The notes beneath the pieces were generated by a model that was not told where the DNA came from, ran no database searches, and saw only the letters and a list, made by a program, of their open reading frames with translations. Of a stretch of DNA of 64,000 nucleotides, positions 4,557-58,887 are shown in pieces. Positions within the stretch are counted from its first letter, which is position 1. Every line of letters starts with the position of its first letter. The translations under genes were made by a program, and so were the position numbers. This DNA is from a virus: IMG/VR virus record IMGVR_UViG_3300037499_000265, positions 32,001 through 96,000 of that record; one strand, written 5' to 3'.

Positions 4557-6308
4557 ATGATGGCCAAGTCCACTACCCCTGATCCGTTCGAAGACAAGCG
4601 CACGCCGGGCGAACCGCCTCCCGAAGTGAAACGAGATCAGTGGGGCCGGTATCTGCTGCCGCATCCGGAGACCGGCAAACTGCAGGCCTGGACGCGGGCG
4701 ACCACGTTTGCCAACACGGCCGCCGACCAGTACAACATCGGTCTGTACAACGAGCGCCTGGTCGCCAAGGGCATGGCGATGCGGCCAGATCTCTACGCCG
4801 AGGCCGCCAGCGCGCACATCGACGACAAGGCAACGCTGCAGAAGATCTCCAATCTGGCCAAAGAGGCTGCTGGCGGCAGCGCCAAGGCTCGTCTCGGTAC
4901 CGCGTTGCACACCTTCACCGAGAAGACCGACCTCAACGAGAAGATCACCATCCCGGCTCCATGGGACGCCGACGTGAAGGCCTACACCGCCAAGCTGTCC
5001 GAGGAGAAGGTCGAGGTCCTGAAGGAATACATCGAGGCCACAGTCATCGTGCCGTCGCTCGGTGTGGCTGGCACGCTCGACCGACTGATCAAGATAGACG
5101 GGCTGGACGGCATCGTAGTAGGGGACCTCAAGTCGGGTCATTCGGTGCAATACGCCTGGATGGAGATCGCCTGCCAGCTCTTCCTCTACTCCCGAGCCAC
5201 CCACATCTATGACCACCGGACCGAGACGCTGTCCGAGATGCCGGAAGTCAACCAGGACAAGGCGATCGTCATCCATCTGCCAGTGGGGGATGCGGAGTGT
5301 GAACTCTACGAGATCAACCTCGAGTTAGGCGCCCGTGTGGCTGCGGCGTGCGAGGTGGTCCGCGAACTGCGCAAGCGTAAGAACTTCTCGATCCCGTGGG
5401 AAGGCTCGGTCTCCCGTGCGGTGGCTCTCAGCGGTGACGATGAGCCTGTCAGCGACGATGCCGACTGGACTGACGCAGAAGACGTCAAGGTGGCGTCCGA
5501 CCAGCAGGCGTCGCAGGACGCCAAGGCGGATGAGGACGAGTGGGGAGACGGTCCTAGCGCGGAAGCTACAATGGCCGCTCAGGCCGCCGAGGACGACGCA
5601 CAGGCCATGCAGCCCGCTGACGGGTGGGATGAGGACGAGCCGCCGTCCGCCGCGCAGGCCACCGCAGAGAAGATCGCACTGTCGGACAGCTGGGTCGCCG
5701 CCGGCATCGATCCCGAGGGCAAGCGGTTCCAACGCGCCAAGCTCGCCAAGAGCATGTACATCGCGGTCGACGTGACCACCGGCAAGCATGAGACGTTCAA
5801 GCTGCTGCGTGAGGCCAAGGACCGTGTCGCCGAGCTGGACGACACACTCGTCACTCCGGACTCCGACGTTCGTCCCATCGGTGCAGACGAACCGGCCGGC
5901 TCTGGTGATGAGTGGAACGAGCAGGAAGGCGAGGTCCGACCCGCATCGACACCTCCGTCGGCGGATGACGAGCAGGAGAAAGCAGACGAGATCGCTCTGC
6001 TCAAGGTAGAACTGGCCAAACTACGCGGCGAGGGGGGCGAGGAATCCACTCCAGTGGCGGTCAAGAAGGCTGCGGTGCCGGGAGTCAAGCCGACGAAGGA
6101 GTCGACGAAAGAGCAGGCTAAGCCCGCCAAGCGCAAGTGGATGGCCGAGGTGCTCGAGGCCGACAGCGAGGATCGACTGCTCAAGCTGTACCGCAAGGCC
6201 AAGGCCGCCGGCGAGTGGAACGACAAGCTCACCAAGGCCGCAGCGACCGTCAAGGCCAAGCTGCTGGCCGCCGAGGCAGCCGAGGTAGACGACGATGACA
6301 ACTGGTGA
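4557..6308 (+). CDS. PD-(D/E)XK (RecB/lambda-like) exonuclease with long acidic C-terminal extension
   Basis: TRATTFA, GTALH, E..V, AGTLDRL, GDLKSG and QLFLY motifs; D/E/A-rich tail. Confidence 0.85.
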   Translation: MMAKSTTPDPFEDKRTPGEPPPEVKRDQWGRYLLPHPETGKLQAWTRATTFANTAADQYNIGLYNERLVAKGMAMRPDLYAEAASAHIDDKATLQKISNLAKEAAGGSAKARLGTALHTFTEKTDLNEKITIPAPWDADVKAYTAKLSEEKVEVLKEYIEATVIVPSLGVAGTLDRLIKIDGLDGIVVGDLKSGHSVQYAWMEIACQLFLYSRATHIYDHRTETLSEMPEVNQDKAIVIHLPVGDAECELYEINLELGARVAAACEVVRELRKRKNFSIPWEGSVSRAVALSGDDEPVSDDADWTDAEDVKVASDQQASQDAKADEDEWGDGPSAEATMAAQAAEDDAQAMQPADGWDEDEPPSAAQATAEKIALSDSWVAAGIDPEGKRFQRAKLAKSMYIAVDVTTGKHETFKLLREAKDRVAELDDTLVTPDSDVRPIGADEPAGSGDEWNEQEGEVRPASTPPSADDEQEKADEIALLKVELAKLRGEGGEESTPVAVKKAAVPGVKPTKESTKEQAKPAKRKWMAEVLEADSEDRLLKLYRKAKAAGEWNDKLTKAAATVKAKLLAAEAAEVDDDDNW

Positions 6309-13066: not shown

Positions 13067-13317
13067 AGATCTCCTACCAGGTCGGACTCGCCTTCGACGA
13101 AGCTGACGATGTCGAGGCTCGTACGGGATACGAGGAGCTGGCCAACCTGTCGGACTACACCGCCGAGAAACACGAGCTGTTCGCTTACCTGCTGATGATG
13201 GCCGTGCGGCTCGAGTGGCGGATGGCAGACCGGTCCAGGGAGTACGAACTGGACCGTCAGCGACGCGAGGAACGCCGACGGGAACGAGCTGAGAAAAAGG
13301 CTGCCGAAAGTACTTGA
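13063..13317 (+). CDS. Hypothetical protein with charged C-terminus
   Basis: GTGA overlap with upstream stop. Confidence 0.5.
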   Translation: MKISYQVGLAFDEADDVEARTGYEELANLSDYTAEKHELFAYLLMMAVRLEWRMADRSREYELDRQRREERRRERAEKKAAEST

Positions 13318-13342
13318 CACGATCGTCAGACCCCGATAGTCT
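13314..13342 (+). promoter_or_regulatory. Near-consensus promoter driving the non-coding array
   Basis: TTGACA-17 nt-TAGTCT. Confidence 0.7.
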
Positions 13343-13353
13343 CGTAGGAGTAG

Positions 13354-13910
13354 GTCGGGTGGGGGTCAAGCCGCTTCGGTCCGGATGACTACAACTCTCC
13401 GGTCGTCGTGGTCCCCGCCCATCCGACGAAGGAGCCGACGAGCTGAAACACACTTGCCAGACCGCCAGCGAGGCGAGAAGGTGGGTAGACAACTCCACAG
13501 CGTGGCACAGGAGGTTCCTCCATCATCAAGCTCCGTCAGGGGCTTTCCGCAGATTTACCTCCCGCCACGTCTTCAACAACTTCATAGATGTGCTGCGCCG
13601 GGTAGGCACGGCTGGACGGTTGGCCGGAAAGCTTCAGCGACCTAGTCGCTCGAGGTGAGTAGGTGGGACCCGGTGCAGTGCTTGACAACTGAACAGCGGT
13701 GGCACAGGAGGTTCCTCCATCAACGCTCCTCTCGAGGAGCTCGAACAGACTACCTCCCGCCACCTCTGACAACTTCATAATGTGGCATAGGGGGTTCCTC
13801 CACAAACCACCATGTAGGTATCCATACCTCCCGCCACACTGACAACTTCATAACGTGGCACAGGGAGTTCCTCCACATCCGCATTTGGTTGCATATATAC
13901 TCCCCGCCAC
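13354..13910 (+). ncRNA. Putative multi-module structured ncRNA array (four repeated modules plus other closed stems)
   Basis: No credible ORF; bounded by promoter and terminator; repeated pairing arms with compensatory changes. Confidence 0.7.
13502..13910 (+). repeat. Four copies of GTGGCA(C/T)AGG(A/G)(G/A)GTTCCTCCA-variable-TAC(C/T)(T/C)CCCGCCAC at 13502-13568, 13699-13763, 13782-13837 and 13855-13910
   Basis: Read directly from the sequence. Confidence 0.95.
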
Positions 13911-13920
13911 GCCCGACGAT

Positions 13921-13958
13921 GGGCGCGGTTCTGTGCGACAGACCGCGCCCGTTTTTTA
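13921..13958 (+). terminator. Intrinsic terminator closing the array
   Basis: GGGCGCGGT..CTGT/ACAG..ACCGCGCCC stem followed by GTTTTTTAT. Confidence 0.8.
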
Positions 13959-13995
13959 TGTTTGATCATGTTAGACCGACGAGAAGGAGGCAACA

Positions 13996-15876
13996 ATGCG
14001 ATCCACTATCCGACTGTTCAAGGCGCTGCCGGTGTCCGGCACCGCGGGCGGTCTGCCGACAGATCCCGCGTTGGATCGGCTCACCCTGCGCCGTGGGTTC
14101 GTGTTCGACTCTAGTCTCGTCGGCGAGTACCGCAGTGTGGACCGTCTGATCTCCATGGTTGACGAGGTGTACGGCCGGGGCTCGGTCGAGCTGAACACCG
14201 CGTTCCACAAGTCCTTCGCCAAGGTCCGCGACGCCTCGATCCAGCAGCTGGTCTTCGAGCAGATCGTCCACTACTTCACCACCTACGGCGCAGAGCACTT
14301 CGGCGTGTACGACGAGAGTTCAGTCTTCGTTCCCGGTGAGCACCTCGACGCCCCGGAACTGTCCGAAGGCATTCGCGTCGTCGTCATCCGCGGGCTGACC
14401 AAGGCCGAACTCAAGACCGAGCTGCTGACGCTCGTCTCGTCCGGGATCGCCCTGGCCGAGGACACCATCGCCGACGTGCTCGACGTGGCCGCCTTCGTCG
14501 GCCTGGACGAGGCCGATCTGTCCGCCATCACCAACCGAGAGGTCCGGGCCGCGCTGTACGACCATCTCGGCATCATGCCGTCCGACCCGCAGGAGTTCCT
14601 GCGGTTCCTGGTGTACCGGGCGACCGGACAGACCCAGGTGGTCCAGAACGACTCCCTGCTCAACACTCTGCGCTCCCGGGACAACCTCGACCTGGTCCGG
14701 TACTTCCGGACGTATGAGGCTCAGACCGGCCTGCGCCGGCTCGGTGAGATCTTCCTACGGTACCGGCTGGTCTTCCTCGCCATGAAGACCAACACGGTCC
14801 TGCGCACCTACATCAACCGGATCCGTCGGGAGGCCAAGCGGTCCCACAAGCCGATGCCCGAAGACGTCCTGAACTCGGTCACGATGCACCTCAAGCGCGG
14901 CGATCTGGACTCCGGCGCGGTGTCCCAGGCGCTGGCGACCGCCAGTGTGTTCCGCAAGGCCCGGCTGGCCTACGCGCTGCGGTACCGGATGTCCGGAGCC
15001 GACGGGATCGTCTATCGGGTGCGCAACGGGCGCGCGTACGCCACCGACTTCAGCTTCCCGCTCGATATCGACGTCGAGACTGTTTTCGGCGAGGTCATCT
15101 CCTCGATCGCTGGCGACATCACGCCGAAGGTAGACGGGAAGAAGATCTTCATCCCGGCCGGACTGGCCTATGGCCTACCCTCGACCGAGAAGCAGTTCAT
15201 CGGGCACCTGCCGGCGGGGACGTCGGTGACGGTGCCGGACGGGCTAGTCGTCGGCGTGCACTGGGAAGACCAGGGCGATCACCGCATCAACCTCGACCTG
15301 TCGCTGTCCAACATCGCTGAGAAGATCGGATGGGACGGCTACTACCGGAGCAGCGGGGACGACGGAATCTACTTCTCCGGCGACCTCACCTACGCTCCGC
15401 CGCCGAATGGTGCCACCGAGGTGTTCCGCATCGGCGCCAGTGCGTACGGAACGTGGCTGCTGAACCTGAACTACTTCAACTACAACGAGGACATCGACGT
15501 CCCGTTCCGGATCCTGGCCGGACACGCCTCAGCCGTGGAGAAGAACCACGTCGTCGACCCGAACGCCCTCGTCGCGAACGCTCACGCGAGGATGGACGTG
15601 CACCAGCGGACACTCGGGATCGTCGTGTCGGGCTTCACCGAGCGACAGTTCTTCTTCGCCGGCGCCGACATCGGAGGTGGGATCACGTCCCGGCACACCC
15701 AGCGTGCCGACGTGGCGATGAAGTACTTCGAGACCTACTACGTCAACGCGATCCCACTGAACGACATCCTGGTCTCCGCCGGCGCCGAGCTGGTCGTTGA
15801 CGCTGCTGACTCGGACCTGGATCTGTCGCCGGAGGCCGTGGACAAGAACACGTTCCTCGAGCTGCTGACGACGTGA
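13996..15876 (+). CDS. 626-aa protein with helical N-terminal region and TerD-like C-terminal domain
   Basis: AAGGAGG RBS; VGVHW...NLDLS...IGWDG....FSGDLT.AP..GATE resembles TerD-family motifs. Confidence 0.7.
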   Translation: MRSTIRLFKALPVSGTAGGLPTDPALDRLTLRRGFVFDSSLVGEYRSVDRLISMVDEVYGRGSVELNTAFHKSFAKVRDASIQQLVFEQIVHYFTTYGAEHFGVYDESSVFVPGEHLDAPELSEGIRVVVIRGLTKAELKTELLTLVSSGIALAEDTIADVLDVAAFVGLDEADLSAITNREVRAALYDHLGIMPSDPQEFLRFLVYRATGQTQVVQNDSLLNTLRSRDNLDLVRYFRTYEAQTGLRRLGEIFLRYRLVFLAMKTNTVLRTYINRIRREAKRSHKPMPEDVLNSVTMHLKRGDLDSGAVSQALATASVFRKARLAYALRYRMSGADGIVYRVRNGRAYATDFSFPLDIDVETVFGEVISSIAGDITPKVDGKKIFIPAGLAYGLPSTEKQFIGHLPAGTSVTVPDGLVVGVHWEDQGDHRINLDLSLSNIAEKIGWDGYYRSSGDDGIYFSGDLTYAPPPNGATEVFRIGASAYGTWLLNLNYFNYNEDIDVPFRILAGHASAVEKNHVVDPNALVANAHARMDVHQRTLGIVVSGFTERQFFFAGADIGGGITSRHTQRADVAMKYFETYYVNAIPLNDILVSAGAELVVDAADSDLDLSPEAVDKNTFLELLTT

Positions 15877-29251: not shown

Positions 29252-32200
29252 CAGTCACAACCTCTCTGCCAGGTGTCAGTAGGAGCGGTGCGATGGTTCC
29301 AGCCTGCATGTCCAGTTCGAACCCGATGCACCGACCTTTACCAACAGTGCCAGCTGGATGACGATGGCCGGTCAGATCCCAGCCGATGTCGTCTCCGATC
29401 TTCCAGTCGACACCGTAGCGCGGATACTGACTCCATACAGCGTCGATTTTGAACACATTCGTACCATTGGCAAGCCGATCAAGCCCTGCAGCGGCGTGAT
29501 CGTTCAACGTACCGACCTGAGTGATGGATGATGATGGCATCCAGTGTCGTTCGAAGATCGGTTTCCCAGCGGCCAGTGCGACAGTGTCGATAGCAGGGTC
29601 GGAAACCGGCTGATCGTCACCCTCGCCAACCGCGTAGGCGACTTGATAGTTGCCATAGCGGCCTTCAGTTCGATCCTCGGTATAGGTGTAGATAGCGTTT
29701 GATGACCCGATTGAAGAGAATATGGACTGCTCTGTAGTCTGAAAGACCGCTGGTGGAGACTCTTCAGTGATTCCAATTCGTTTACGGGCACGGAAAATCT
29801 TTGCAACTGCCGTCTCGGTCGTGTCAGTCCAGTCGATGTCGATTGTCCATTCCGGACCTTCGATCACGCCCATCAGCTCACGTAACCGCTCATAGACTGT
29901 CGCATGGTCGGAGTAGTGGTAAGTTCTCGTTCTCAACGTTCCGGTCGCCGGCGCGTCCACCAGCAAACTGATTCCAACCCCGACGCCGGGGATGTCCTGA
30001 GCATCTTCAACCAGTCCGGTCAAGATTACTGAGGACTCGTCCTGTTGCGTCCAAGAATGGTCACGGACGAACCGGCGACGGAAGTACCCTTCTAGGCTCA
30101 CCGCACTGAACTCGGCCTGCGCAGGTGTGCCTCCCCGCCGCACCAAGGGGATGCCTGCCCAGATAGGAACGTTGTTCACCACCGCCACCAGCATGGTCTC
30201 AGCTGGTGTGGACAGTTGTTCGACCAGTGCAGCCTTCTGGATCAACGACAGTCCTGAGTGCCCGACAGTAGGGATAGGTAGCCTCAGGCTGGAAGACGTG
30301 TATGCTCCGAGAACTCGAGAGACCTGACCGACCAGATTCGGCAGCTCCGCGATAATTCGCCCAGTAGCCAGGTCACAAGACAGCCAGGTGACCTCGGTAC
30401 GGATCTCGGACACAGCGATCGTCGGCAGGCCGGGCTCCGGCGGCGGTGGTTCGGGCGGCTCCGGTCCAGTGTCGATGACCAGCTGATGCGAGAATGTCGC
30501 TGCCGCAGCGGTATATGCCTGGGCGGTGATCGTGATCGATGCGCCGGAATCGTTGACACTGAACGTACCGTACTGCGTCCGTGATTGACTGGCCCCGACG
30601 TCGTAGCTACCAGCGCCGGGGTCGAACGGCGTGGCGTCTATGCTTCCAACCACGTAGACCGGGAAACCACCCCATAGGTTGTTGGCTCCGGAGTCAAACG
30701 CGTTCGCATGAATGTCGGCGTTCATCATGACCATGCGATCAGACCAGCCGGTCGAGATGAGCAGGTCTGCTAATTCCTGCCGCTCGGTCATGAAACCTGG
30801 CCACGAATCCGAGCCGCCGTTGATCCATCGGATGGACGACACGACTACTAACGCATCGGCGGTGGACGTGTTTAGAAGATTGGTGAACCATACCTTCTGG
30901 GCCGCGCCGAGCATCGTCTTGCTCGGGCCGTCAGGGTCAGAGTTGGGAGAGCGGTAGAAACGGCAGTCCCAGACCACGAACAGCACGCGTCCGATTTGGA
31001 AGCTGTGGTAGATGGCGCCGCTATCATCCAGCGAATAGGACGGCACTCGCTCCCGGTAGACATCTGCGCCGTTCTGCTTGGTCGATAGTGTGCCGTCGGA
31101 GTTGTTCGGCCCGTAGTCATGGTCGTCCCACATGTAAACCAGCGGCATGTTGTGGTACAGCTCATGCTGTCGGCTCTGAAGTAGAACGTCGTCAAAGGCG
31201 CGGCGATAGTTGGCTAGCGACCCGCCACCGGTGATGCCGTGGCTCCCGGACCCAAGATCGTAGTAGTGCAGGTCCCCAGCGTGCAGGAAGAACAGTGGGC
31301 CTGACGGGTGCTCGCGGATCGTGTCAAAGGTTGGCGCATTTGACACCCGATCAGTCGCCAGTACGTTGCCTGTGGTGTCGGGGAAGTCCGGTGATAGTCC
31401 TGCATCACCGGATGCGATGAACGAGAACGAGCCGACCGATCCGGCTGGCGCTGGCGCGGTCCGGAACTGGCCGGTGGTACTGAAGATCTGTGCGGTGCCT
31501 TGGACGGTCCAAGTCTTACCGGTGGTGTCAGTGAAGGATGCCGCGTCGATGGGTGCAAGCGCAGGAAACGGATCAGTAACCACAACTCCGTCGATGCCGT
31601 TGCGGATCTCCGCGGCGTGTATCGTCCCCGCGAACGGCCGCCCGGTCCCACCGTCCACGGCGGCCAGGGAAGCCTCAGCGGTGCCACTGAAAATGGTGGT
31701 GGCCCCGGCGGTGGTGACCACCGATCCGAGCTGTGTCCACGACCCGGTGATGGCATCGGCGGTATAGAAGGTGACGTCATTCCCGGCCGCCCCGTTATCA
31801 GCGTCGAGGGTGGCCCGGACGGCCAGCTTTCCGCTGGTGATCGGGACTGAGACCGTCGACATGGGCAGAACCGAATTCGCCCCAGTGGTTGACCAGAACA
31901 GCGACAGCCGGCCGTCATTCTCAACCCCTAAGAAGTACGATCGCTGGCCCCCGGTCGTAACCCACTTCCCGAGGAGTGTAGCCCGCACACCATCCGGCGC
32001 GGCAGCGGTCCAGTCGTCGATGGTGACTTCGGCCCGGACGTCGAGATCCCCGATGATATCGAGCGAGGCATCGTCGGGAGTGGTGGCATAGTCGCCCGAC
32101 GTGCCGTCAGTGACCAAGCCGCCAGGGGCAAGATTCCCATCCTCCTCGATGGCGTAAAAGTAGGTGCTGCCGGGATCGAGCGCGCTGGCCGCGATGTCTA

Positions 32201-57692: not shown

Positions 57693-57764
57693 TCTCCATT
57701 GGTGTAATCGGTAGCACGGTCGGCTCTGGTCCGGCCGGTCGAGGTTCGAATCCTTGGTGGAGAG
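57693..57764 (+). tRNA. tRNA-Gln (CTG)
   Basis: Cloverleaf: TCTCCAT/GTGGAGA, anticodon loop CTCTGGT, GGTTCGAATCC. Confidence 0.88.
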
Positions 57765-57806
57765 CGACACAAGTGTCCAGGCGCAACACCGCGCTTGGCT
57801 TCCCGA

Positions 57807-58053
57807 GATGGGAGATGGCGAGATGCCAGTGGAACGGATTTACCTCGATGAGACCGACGAGCGCAACGCTCGACACATCGATGTGCAGTGGGGACGCGAG
57901 AAGCCGAACATCAATATCGGCACCACACAGGATGACCCCAACGCGAGAGAAGACTTGGGCGTGTTCATCGACCTGGTTGATCGAGGTCAGGTCAACCACC
58001 TGATCCGAGTGCTTCGCAAGGCTCGCGACCAGGCGTTCGGCCGCGACGAGTAG
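57807..58053 (+). CDS. Hypothetical protein inside the tRNA cluster (ORF track 57754-58053; start uncertain)
   Basis: C-terminal N.LIRVLRKARDQAFGRDE motif. Confidence 0.55.
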
Positions 58054-58139
58054 TACCATCAAACGGCGCAGGCGCCCGAGCCTTGCCTCAGGGTGTCTGT
58101 GCAAAGCCAGGGGTAGGTGCCCGTCCATGCTCCTGGCGA

Positions 58140-58212
58140 CGGGACGTAGCTCAGCAGGAAGAGCACCCGGCCTGGGACCGGGAGGTCGCACGTTCGAGCC
58201 GTGCCGCCCCGA
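58140..58212 (+). tRNA. tRNA-Pro (TGG), atypical
   Basis: CCCGG-CCTGGGA-CCGGG anticodon arm; C at position 33; one acceptor-stem mismatch. Confidence 0.75.
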
Positions 58213-58213
58213 C

Positions 58214-58339
58214 GATGGAAGCAGTAGGGATGCCGGTACAAGCTCGCCCGATGACGAGGTGAGGCTAGCTTCAACAGGGTCAGCGGCGTGATGAGCGCCG
58301 ATCTTCAACGACAGATGAAATGTGCCTGCCGCTTCCATC
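58214..58339 (+). ncRNA. Candidate structured non-tRNA RNA
   Basis: Closing stem GATGGAAGC-A-GTAGG / CCTGC-C-GCTTCCATC enclosing several hairpins. Confidence 0.4.
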
Positions 58340-58417
58340 AAGCGGGTCCGGTTAGTACGTCATTGTGCAACCAAGGAACACCGGAGCGAGTGGTGGGAGC
58401 GCACCAGCCCGCGGCAC

Positions 58418-58491
58418 GGCGCGTTGGTCTAGTTGGGCAGGACGCCTGATTCTCAGTCAGGAGGACGTGAGTTCGAACCTCACACGCGCTA
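58418..58491 (+). tRNA. tRNA-Glu (CTC)
   Basis: CCTGA-TTCTCAG-TCAGG anticodon arm; full cloverleaf. Confidence 0.88.
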
Positions 58492-58492
58492 C

Positions 58493-58574
58493 GCGTCGGT
58501 TGAGCAACTGGTGGCTCGCGTGGCTGTAAACCACGTCCCTTCGGGGCTTGCAGGTTCGAGTCCTGCCTGGCGCA
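58493..58574 (+). tRNA. tRNA-Tyr (GTA)
   Basis: CGTGG-CTGTAAA-CCACG anticodon arm; long variable arm. Confidence 0.88.
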
Positions 58575-58575
58575 C

Positions 58576-58649
58576 GGGGCGTTGGTCTAGCCTGGTGAGG
58601 ATCCCTGACTTTCGATCAGGAGGCGCGAGTTCAAATCTCGCACGCCCTG
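58576..58649 (+). tRNA. tRNA-Glu (TTC)
   Basis: CCTGA-CTTTCGA-TCAGG anticodon arm. Confidence 0.88.
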
Positions 58650-58703
58650 CTACTATGAGGCCATGCTGATCCGCCGCTCGTCTAGCCGCTCATCCTGACG
58701 TCA

Positions 58704-58787
58704 GGAGGGGTGGCCGAGAGGCCTATGGCACCGCACTGCTAATGCGAGTACGCGAAAGCGTCGCGGGTTCGAATCCCGCCCCCTCCG
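58704..58787 (+). tRNA. tRNA-Ser (GCT)
   Basis: GGAGGGG/CCCCTCC acceptor; loop CTGCTAA; long variable arm. Confidence 0.9.
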
Positions 58788-58792
58788 CGCAA

Positions 58793-58875
58793 GGAGGGTG
58801 GCGCTGAATGGTCGGCAACCGGTTTCGAAAACCGGGCTGGGGTCACACCCAAGGGTTCGAGTCCTTCACCCTCCG
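58793..58875 (+). tRNA. tRNA-Ser (CGA)
   Basis: GGAGGGT/ACCCTCC acceptor; loop TTCGAAA; long variable arm. Confidence 0.9.
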
Positions 58876-58887
58876 CTCTGGAGGTAG

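Follow-up and report, generated by a model that had tools for sequence, protein, structure and literature searches.

We analysed a 64,000-nucleotide stretch of viral DNA (IMG/VR record IMGVR_UViG_3300037499_000265, positions 32,001 to 96,000; hereafter the window) and found that one of its genes, the open reading frame (ORF) at 13996-15876 on the plus strand, belongs to a widespread protein family that is strongly and exclusively linked to a family of small structured RNAs encoded beside it. By analogy with Ro60 and its Y RNAs, the encoded protein, which we named P0001, probably forms the protein half of an RNA-protein particle in which the adjacent small RNAs are its partners, a reading to which we assign a probability of roughly 60%. 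Our confidence is lower for the specific role of such a particle, which is likely the control of tRNA or RNA damage during infection, beside RNA repair enzymes. The system is related to Ro60 in theme and is not interchangeable with it, and the likeness is one of analogy rather than of demonstrated homology. The ORF runs uninterrupted from ATG to stop and encodes 626 amino acids (aa). It is part of a complete virus record of 127,505 bp with direct terminal repeats, obtained from a sediment metagenome; the phage genome has ~62% G+C, collagen-like tail fibres and a tRNA cluster. A first-pass annotation of the window had described here a TerD-like protein with a large helical N-terminal region and a strong ribosome-binding site, placed after an RNA array and its terminator, and had proposed that it works in a Ro-analogous manner. 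The landmarks on the DNA could all be located. The two peptides that it quoted are residues 70-98 (FHKSFAKVRDASIQQLVFEQIVHYFTTYG) and 255-264 (RYRLVFLAMK) of P0001; the Shine-Dalgarno (SD) sequence GAAGGAGG was read at 13983-13990 (+), 5 nt 5' of the ATG; a G+C-rich, intrinsic terminator-like hairpin followed by a T-run, identified by folding and scanning at ~13917-13958 (+), separates array and ORF and ends ~38 nt from the ATG; and the array contains four modules, at 13500-13912.

The RNA half of the pairing was defined from these four modules, all on the plus strand (module 1, 13500-13570; module 2, 13697-13765; module 3, 13780-13839; module 4, 13853-13912). Each consists of a 5-bp helix, an A-N-A loop facing one bulged C, a 6-bp helix, an unpaired UCCU and a variable hairpin; we refer to the bulged helix with its UCCU as the handle. 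The array fold was computed on 13320-13960 and gave z = -4.7 for the whole region. Helix 2 of module 3 has a G-U pair in place of the A-U of module 1, and module 4 carries a compensatory change (GGGAGU/ACUCCC versus GGAGGU/ACCUCC). Module 1 was recovered within repeat families D2 and D3, and module 2 by a strict regular expression. A covariance model, R1, was built from the four window modules alone and scored them at 78.3, 78.0, 69.4 and 71.2 bits, respectively. For the window array Rfam returned nothing but chance miRNA-like rows, with YrlA and Y_RNA unmatched at E <= 10.

Applied to the loci of P0001 homologues, R1 gave 278 further matches over 158 loci, 170 of them at 78 viral and 108 at 80 genomic loci. 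All of them lay on the strand of the gene, nearly all within ~500 nt upstream and a few just downstream. The strict regular expression, which includes a complementarity check and is independent of the covariance model, gave 238 matches on the plus strand, 219 of them within 1200 nt upstream and 9 just downstream, and none on the minus strand or in shuffled sequence. Strict modules were present in 120 of the 158 loci, in 1 to 7 tandem copies each. At the scale of whole genomes, R1 matched the 127.5-kb phage four times, always inside the array, and the 178.5-kb cyanophage S-CRM01 three times, always flanking its P0001-family gene g174; among four flavobacterial genomes (E <= 0.01) it gave a single match, at the locus, in two and none in the other two. 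The link between protein gene and RNAs is strong, and the linkage of the RNAs is exclusive. Covariation speaks for the structure itself. Across 65 aligned modules 99.6% of cells were paired and 9 of the 11 pairs changed on both sides, and the observed score was reached in 0 of 500 shuffles and approached by no slid register, in an alignment that was fitted to the model and is to that extent biased towards the structure. Invariant in the 65 modules are handle positions C7, A8, A10, U16-U17-C18-C19-U20, A148, C154 and G155. A CCUCC(A) look-alike of the anti-SD sequence in the module loops (13515-13525 and its equivalents in modules 2-4) occurs in this phage only, and we rejected anti-SD mimicry by the loops as a general feature, only GUUCCU being invariant across the family modules.

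The main rival to a trans-acting particle is that the modules are cis-regulatory operators in the leader of the gene, where the protein, a different factor or a ligand would bind them and so control terminator read-through or access to the ribosome-binding site. Part of their placement is as expected for operators. They are nearly always upstream and on the same strand, the terminator of the window stands between array and ORF with no second promoter visible, and the distance from the end of the last module to the start codon is at most 25 nt at 31 of 98 loci, where the SD sequence follows that module directly, an arrangement that counts against the particle. Other properties of the modules are harder to reconcile with a purely cis-acting role: they occur in 1 to 7 tandem copies per locus, they can lie downstream of the gene (L093, L124, L111, L132 and S-CRM01) or 2.4 kb off between tRNA genes (cyanophage S-CBWM1), and their handle is also embedded in complete tRNA-like and YrlA-like RNAs. 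In Chryseobacterium, moreover, RtcB precedes the RNAs in an operon whose layout resembles rsr-yrlBA-rtcBA. We consider it unlikely that the RNAs act in cis and nothing more. Since the last module abuts the ribosome-binding site in those 31 loci, autoregulation is plausible as an added layer, and it could operate beside the trans role of a particle.

In relatives of the phage, the handle is carried by larger RNAs with tRNA-like domains. Chryseobacterium, many other bacteria and phages encode a tRNA-like RNA with acceptor, D and T arms in which the anticodon loop is swapped for the handle, present in permuted form (AC-nnnn-C-GC, a small loop, then GGC-ANA-nnnn-GUUCCU). Such RNAs, with the handle in the anticodon arm, were found at ~35 loci, and a non-canonical tRNA-like element lay beside the gene at 58 of 160 loci. 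The handle thus keeps its sequence and pairing in two circular permutations, which fits a docking site. Three relatives, L087, S-CRM01 and the Bythopirellula chromosome L024, gave sub-threshold matches of 36-52 bits to Rfam YrlA (RF02553, gathering score 69 bits), mainly to its tRNA-like core. In L087, YrlA-type cores, with the T arm before the D arm, lie between handle modules, and at 5726-5852 a handle stem encloses a YrlA-type T-arm/D-arm core; in S-CRM01 a YrlA-like RNA (4622-4736) stands directly ahead of two handle modules. No TROVE gene was found in the L087 record, S-CRM01 or S-CBWM1. The Y-RNA-type architecture, in which a protein-binding stem and a tRNA-like domain are combined beside the gene, is accordingly found in relatives and not in the window, which has only short-hairpin modules and two unclassified structured elements. 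Individual RNAs of the anticodon-arm type were recorded at L045:5643-5756 (Chryseobacterium) and in L013, L015, L017, L019, L022, L025, L115, L117, L121, L123 and L152; ARAGORN misses these RNAs, and the Rfam tRNA model gives that of L045 48 bits with a 47-nt insert. In S-CRM01 the 48-aa hypothetical ORF g173c (L164:4791-4937, minus strand) overlaps the modules at 4746-4808 and 4814-4879 on the opposite strand and is probably mis-called.

On the protein side, P0001 was matched by no Pfam, PHROG or PADLOC model, and Pfam run on 33 family members gave only noise, with neither TerD nor TROVE matched. Pfam TerD (PF02342) in particular found no match in P0001 (E <= 1), in the whole phage genome (E <= 10) or in the 33 family members (E <= 0.1), and the TROVE model PF05731 none in P0001, the phage genome or family members. 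The sole library signal was a partial match to NCBIfam NF041916 at aa 404-479 (E 2e-8), far below the cut-off of that model. Sequence searches of the PDB with the single protein or the family profile yielded no relative, and the ESM Atlas returned P0001's own viral clusters and nothing else. Homologues were nevertheless plentiful: we scored 366, and an exhaustive search gave 1392 clusters at 50% identity, 843 of them with E < 1e-30. Nearly all of the homologues listed are 600-700 aa long and can be aligned end to end, and conservation of the gene far exceeds chance expectation. The family is found in IMG/VR phage contigs 42-260 kb long and in genomes or bins from Flavobacteriia, Desulfobacterales, Planctomycetota, Cyanobacteria, Erysipelotrichaceae, Ktedonobacter and Asgard and DPANN archaea. 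The cultured cyanophages S-CRM01 (g174) and S-CBWM1 (gp22), which likewise have handle RNAs, and phage Phass-1 encode relatives with 28-31% identity over 67-86% of P0001, and the Campylobacter phages IBB35 and CP21 and the Lactobacillus phage LpeD (BFVD) gave full-length Foldseek matches with E 5e-17 to 1e-11 at 12-14% identity. Family members bore the source name 'hypothetical protein'; the cultured-phage relatives are annotated as hypothetical or 'tellurium resistance-like', and none has been characterised. Full-text literature linking TerD with RtcB, RlaP, YrlA or Rsr contained no description of the family that we could find, a mention in Burroughs and Aravind (2016) being possible.

An AlphaFold2 model of P0001, built on a 33-sequence alignment (pLDDT 85.5, pTM 0.85), is helical in its N-terminal two-thirds and has a TerD fold at its C-terminus. 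In order, it shows a small alpha/beta N-terminal part, a helical body to residue ~335, a low-confidence loop, a long helix, a beta-sandwich at ~381-562 and a helical tail. The N-terminal part (aa 1-125; 13996-14370), delimited by invariant alignment columns and net charge, is acidic and contains the invariant motif N67-x2-FHKS-x2-K76 ... E88 Q89 H92 Y93 T96 Y97. It is followed by a body of alpha-helical repeats (aa 126-335; 14371-15000), delimited by charge and by alignment to the Deinococcus Rsr structure 2nvo, which we propose as the RNA-binding part. This body is basic in 33 of 33 homologues (net charge +4 to +18, mean +10.7), with ~20 conserved K/R positions, the conserved basic residues including R203, R255, R257, K264, R277, R278, R320, K321, R323 and R331; all other segments are acidic on average over the same 33 sequences. 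From alignment and model, the loop at aa 336-350 (15001-15045) has an invariant Y340-R-V-R343-N-G345-R and is a candidate contact or active loop. The beta-sandwich (aa 381-562; 15136-15681), assigned by Foldseek, VIA and the partial NF041916 match, conserves the acidic residues D434 (DLDLS), D447, D463 (SGDxT) and E475, and the acidic helical tail (aa 563-626; 15682-15873), seen in alignment, model and charge, conserves D609-L-S-x-E613 and K617. All of these segments are encoded on the plus strand, as is the ORF as a whole.

Comparison of the full model with known structures identified both of its halves, with unequal clarity. Foldseek matched the TerD structures 2kxt (E 7.5e-5), 3ibz (1.8e-4) and 2qng (8.7e-4), each with probability 1.00, and VIA aligned residues ~412-578 to 2qz7 (Z 9.7; 146 aa, 3.0 A) and 2kxt (Z 9.0; 147 aa, 3.1 A). 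For the acidic Ca2+-binding motifs of TerD (a DLD strand and a GD-x-T-G...acidic loop), the invariant D434, D447, G462-D463-x-T465 and E475 are candidate counterparts, and the full acidic TerD loop is absent. The C-terminal domain is a TerD beta-sandwich and not an alpha/beta vWA fold with a MIDAS site. The VIA scan covered 48,161 chains, of which just 14 reached Z >= 5, and Ro60 structures took ranks 3, 5 and 7 with by far the longest alignments: Xenopus Ro60 1yvp (Z 5.5; 268 aa, 5.5 A), Thermus phage Ro60 9l5y (Z 5.4; 236 aa, 6.7 A) and Deinococcus Rsr 2nvo (Z 5.3; 169 aa, 4.7 A), the last spanning model residues 169-375, mostly the helical body. The likeness of the model to the Ro60 fold, a HEAT-repeat toroid, appears specific, yet it is weak. 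For the first-pass annotation, these results bear out the large helical N-terminal region, and they uphold the term TerD-like by fold and by the partial NF041916 match, though not by Pfam. Its Ro-analogous reading is supported by analogy, through the combination of helical body and TerD domain and through Ro60 being the only long matches outside TerD, and through a Ro-like context of RtcB/RlaP operons, tRNA arrays and handle-bearing YrlA-type tRNA mimics in genomes that lack TROVE. It had suggested comparing the predicted structure with Ro60 and TerD and looking for arrays upstream of homologues, and had named a fold lacking a basic RNA-binding surface among what would refute it; the R1 matches in 78 viral and 80 genomic loci and the uniformly basic central domain answer the latter two, and those of its tests that were run all favour its reading.

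The conserved residues of P0001 could also be those of an enzyme, a nuclease, transferase or other RNA-modifying activity for which the handle RNAs would be substrates, guides or inhibitors and not scaffold partners. The family has a cluster of invariant polar residues in its N-terminal part (H71, K72, S73, K76, E88, H92, Y93, H284, D290 and N293) and the Y-R-V-R-N-G loop, and its neighbours RtcB and RlaP act on RNA ends. A loose R-x5/6-H pattern (R277/R278...H284) is reminiscent of HEPN RNases; it lies in an arginine-rich helix, where such a pattern is expected by chance, and we set it aside as a HEPN motif for want of fold support. On the other side, no catalytic family was found in Pfam, NCBIfam, PADLOC or PHROGs, and no HEPN or nuclease fold was among the Foldseek or VIA matches. 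We regard an enzymatic P0001 as improbable. Still less room is left for P0001 as an ordinary TerD-type metal or stress protein whose adjacency to RNA is meaningless, for instance because both travel in a shared mobile cassette. The TerD fold is present, and stand-alone TerD genes were reported from actinobacterial phages in a survey of jumbo phages (PMC7824862), but the fold accounts for only ~180 of 626 residues, and Pfam TerD is unmatched. Furthermore, the pairing with the RNAs persists at a protein identity of 30-50%, in phages, archaeal bins and bacteria of many phyla, with almost every other neighbour changing, and in whole genomes model matches, where there are any, occur only beside a P0001-family gene. 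This explanation is very unlikely.

The genomic surroundings of the family connect the proposed particle with RNA repair and tRNA. In ~30 Chryseobacterium loci, RtcB, the tRNA-like RNA, 2-3 modules and the gene lie on the plus strand, with a WYL/WCX regulator and HopJ on the minus strand, and RlaP is near the Chryseobacterium locus. RtcB or RlaP is likewise close to the gene in several viral contigs, in Tenacibaculum and in one bin each of Pacearchaeota and Desulfobacterales. The gene stands amid a tRNA gene cluster in S-CRM01 and S-CBWM1, many relatives have the RNA-protein pair inside such a cluster, and at least 3 tRNA genes lie within 6 kb at 16 of 80 viral loci. The tRNA cluster of the window (57693-58876; seven genes: Gln, Pro, Glu, Tyr, Glu, Ser, Ser) is 42 kb from the pair. 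The phage also has an RtcB gene, a 705-aa ORF at G000:C1:114218-116260, and a gene for an RlaP (PF10127) nucleotidyltransferase at G000:C1:9072-9689, both outside the window, so that two RNA-repair-type enzymes are carried far from the RNA-protein pair. Of the proteins encoded around the window gene, none was seen again at the other 160 loci except for a single weak helicase-fragment match, which leaves the RNAs as the sole recurrent partner of the P0001 gene; no ter genes are near it.

Two further observations concern these neighbouring genes. The WYL/WCX regulator and the HopJ-family protein (L045:2503-3998, with equivalents in ~30 Chryseobacterium loci) are divergent from the operon of RtcB, RNAs and TerD-like gene, and the regulator may act as the operon's sensor. 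The match of the phage RtcB to its model is broken between positions 50 and 49 by an intein-like insert of ~300 aa, and a split RtcB is likewise present in the viral records G171, G172 and G176, which have the TerD-like gene.

Besides the closeness of the last module to the start codon, several results weigh against a Ro60-like particle. The fold matches to Ro60 are weak, with Z of 5.3-5.5 and root-mean-square deviations of 4.7-6.7 A. Sequence comparison gave them no support: hhalign of the family alignment against 11 TROVE proteins returned a probability of 0.13% (E 0.45), and the family profile found 0 matches at E <= 10 among all PDB sequences. When residues 1-385 were modelled alone, in a poorer model (pLDDT 77.7, low at 60-125), Ro60 was absent from the listed matches; VIA then gave only helical-hairpin matches to 286-385 with Z < 7, and Foldseek only weak helical-repeat matches (PPR, TPR, ARM, Puf) with E > 0.04. 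RtcB was present in just 10 of 49 viral records with the gene, which makes the link to repair facultative, and many complete 42-kb phages have the RNA-protein pair without RtcB. Finally, true Ro60 coexists with the P0001 family in 3 of 5 flavobacterial genomes, and the Bythopirellula chromosome has a TROVE gene ~2.5 kb from its TerD-like gene, together with YrlA. The family is therefore not a simple replacement for Ro60. In that chromosome (L024:10400-12120) the TerD-like gene with its handle module is followed, 2.5-6 kb downstream, by the TROVE gene, a 13-tRNA array and two YrlA matches, of 52 and 36 bits. A single neighbourhood contains both systems.

The remaining features of the array bear on its expression. 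A promoter-like TTGACA-N17-TAGTCT was read from the sequence ahead of the array at 13314-13342 (+); it is absent from the consensus scan, its -10 agreeing with TATAAT at just 3 of 6 positions, and fits the looser TANNNT form. No second promoter lies in the 38 nt before the ORF, so P0001 is probably expressed by read-through, in which case the RNA would exceed the protein. Two structured elements on the plus strand have no handle and no Rfam, tRNA or YrlA match: element A (13354-13427; minimum-free-energy and centroid folds), with a closing stem of ~10 bp, and element B (13590-13681; fold), in which a 14-bp closing stem surrounds three hairpins in a four-way junction and which might be a degenerate tRNA-like body. 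An 11-nt spacer, ACAACTTCATA, lies 2-5 nt ahead of modules 1, 3 and 4 and just past module 1 (copies at 13489-13499, 13576-13586, 13769-13779 and 13842-13852), the first copy reading ACAACTCCACA, and module 2 is preceded by the variant GACAACTGAACAGCG (repeat D6). The spacer may be a processing site. It is not a promoter: separate promoters for the modules, based on the TGACAA ahead of each, were considered and rejected, since there is no -10 element at the right spacing.

For the particle, we propose the following mechanism. The array (~13349-13958) would be transcribed from its own promoter, with most transcripts stopping at the terminator and then being cut into single RNAs, and with some reading through to serve for translation of P0001. 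The basic helical body of the protein, possibly closed into a ring, would bind the handle of each RNA, that is, the 5-bp helix ending in G-C, the A-N-A loop opposite the bulged C, the 6-bp helix closed by U-A and the unpaired UCCU. The TerD-fold domain would stand where Ro60 has its vWA domain, with a divalent metal or a second protein as its probable ligand. The distal RNA part, which varies and is a short hairpin in this phage and a tRNA-like body or a YrlA-type permuted tRNA mimic in relatives, may tie the particle to tRNA-handling enzymes or decoy them, working alongside the RtcB and RlaP of the phage itself or those of the host; in a phage this might amount to counter-defence. More tentatively, we can envisage a second, independent family of Y-RNA-type particles, non-homologous to Ro60 and convergent with it in plan. 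Evolution would then have grafted one portable handle onto hairpins, tRNA-like anticodon arms and YrlA-like tRNA mimics, and the anticodon-less tRNA look-alikes could be decoys or sensors for anticodon nucleases, or platforms for repair by RtcB and RlaP, with which phages would counter tRNA-cleaving defences of the host and bacteria would run RNA repair operons under WYL control. Such a family is a possibility that we would not yet favour.

Ro60 and its Y RNAs are among the few RNA-protein particles common to animals, bacteria and phages. With 1392 clusters at 50% identity, in phages, many bacterial phyla and archaeal bins, the P0001 family would be a second one built in this way, with its own covarying RNA family, which is in neither Rfam nor Pfam. 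It would offer an independent system for studying the part that such particles play in tRNA damage and its repair by RtcB, and tractable hosts are at hand in Chryseobacterium species, with their RtcB operon and WYL regulator, and in the cultured cyanophages S-CRM01 and S-CBWM1. The RNAs account for stretches left without annotation, and for odd "tRNA-like" calls, in the tRNA clusters of many phages, and with them comes a portable RNA handle, available in two circularly permuted forms.

Among known systems, TerD proteins are single-domain proteins of ~190 aa encoded in ter clusters with TerC, TerB and TerY. P0001 resembles them (Klebsiella 2kxt; Streptomyces SCO6318, 2qz7 and 3ibz) in the fold of aa ~412-578 and, apparently, in acidic DLD and GDxT-like motifs placed as those of the metal site, and differs in that the TerD fold is just the C-terminal third of a 626-aa protein which Pfam TerD does not match, which has no ter genes nearby and whose conserved partner is RNA. 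Pairs of a scaffold with an RNA were reportedly proposed for RNA repair by Burroughs and Aravind in 2016, in the form of SPFH/Band-7 modules with a tRNA-like RNA. What the two have in common is the notion of a scaffold protein, not itself an enzyme, paired with its own tRNA-like RNA next to RtcB and RlaP; P0001 belongs to another protein family, and no SPFH/Band-7 gene was recurrent in its neighbour clusters. From Ro60 (Rsr), the P0001 family is set apart by the lack of a TROVE sequence signal, by a TerD beta-sandwich in place of the vWA domain, by window RNAs that match neither Y_RNA nor YrlA of Rfam and by coexistence with true Ro60 in some genomes. The RNA site differs as well, the handle being GGC-ANA-GGnnGU UCCU ... 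ACnnCC-C-GCC and the Ro60 site on Y RNA GGUCCGA, or GNCGAA in bacteria (PMC4201824). The two nevertheless share a common plan: a protein of 500-650 aa with a helical body and a C-terminal domain from a metal-binding family, whose best long fold matches, TerD aside, are Ro60 structures; a gene beside one or more small RNAs with a conserved bulged helix; and, in relatives, some partner RNAs with a tRNA-like domain, to which Rfam YrlA gives sub-threshold scores of 36-52 bits at several loci. Both are also found in RtcB-linked operons and in phage tRNA clusters, and the order of RtcB, RNAs and gene in Chryseobacterium mirrors the rsr-yrlBA-rtcBA layout of Salmonella (Chen et al. 2014, PMC4201824; Hughes et al. 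2020, PMC7790460).

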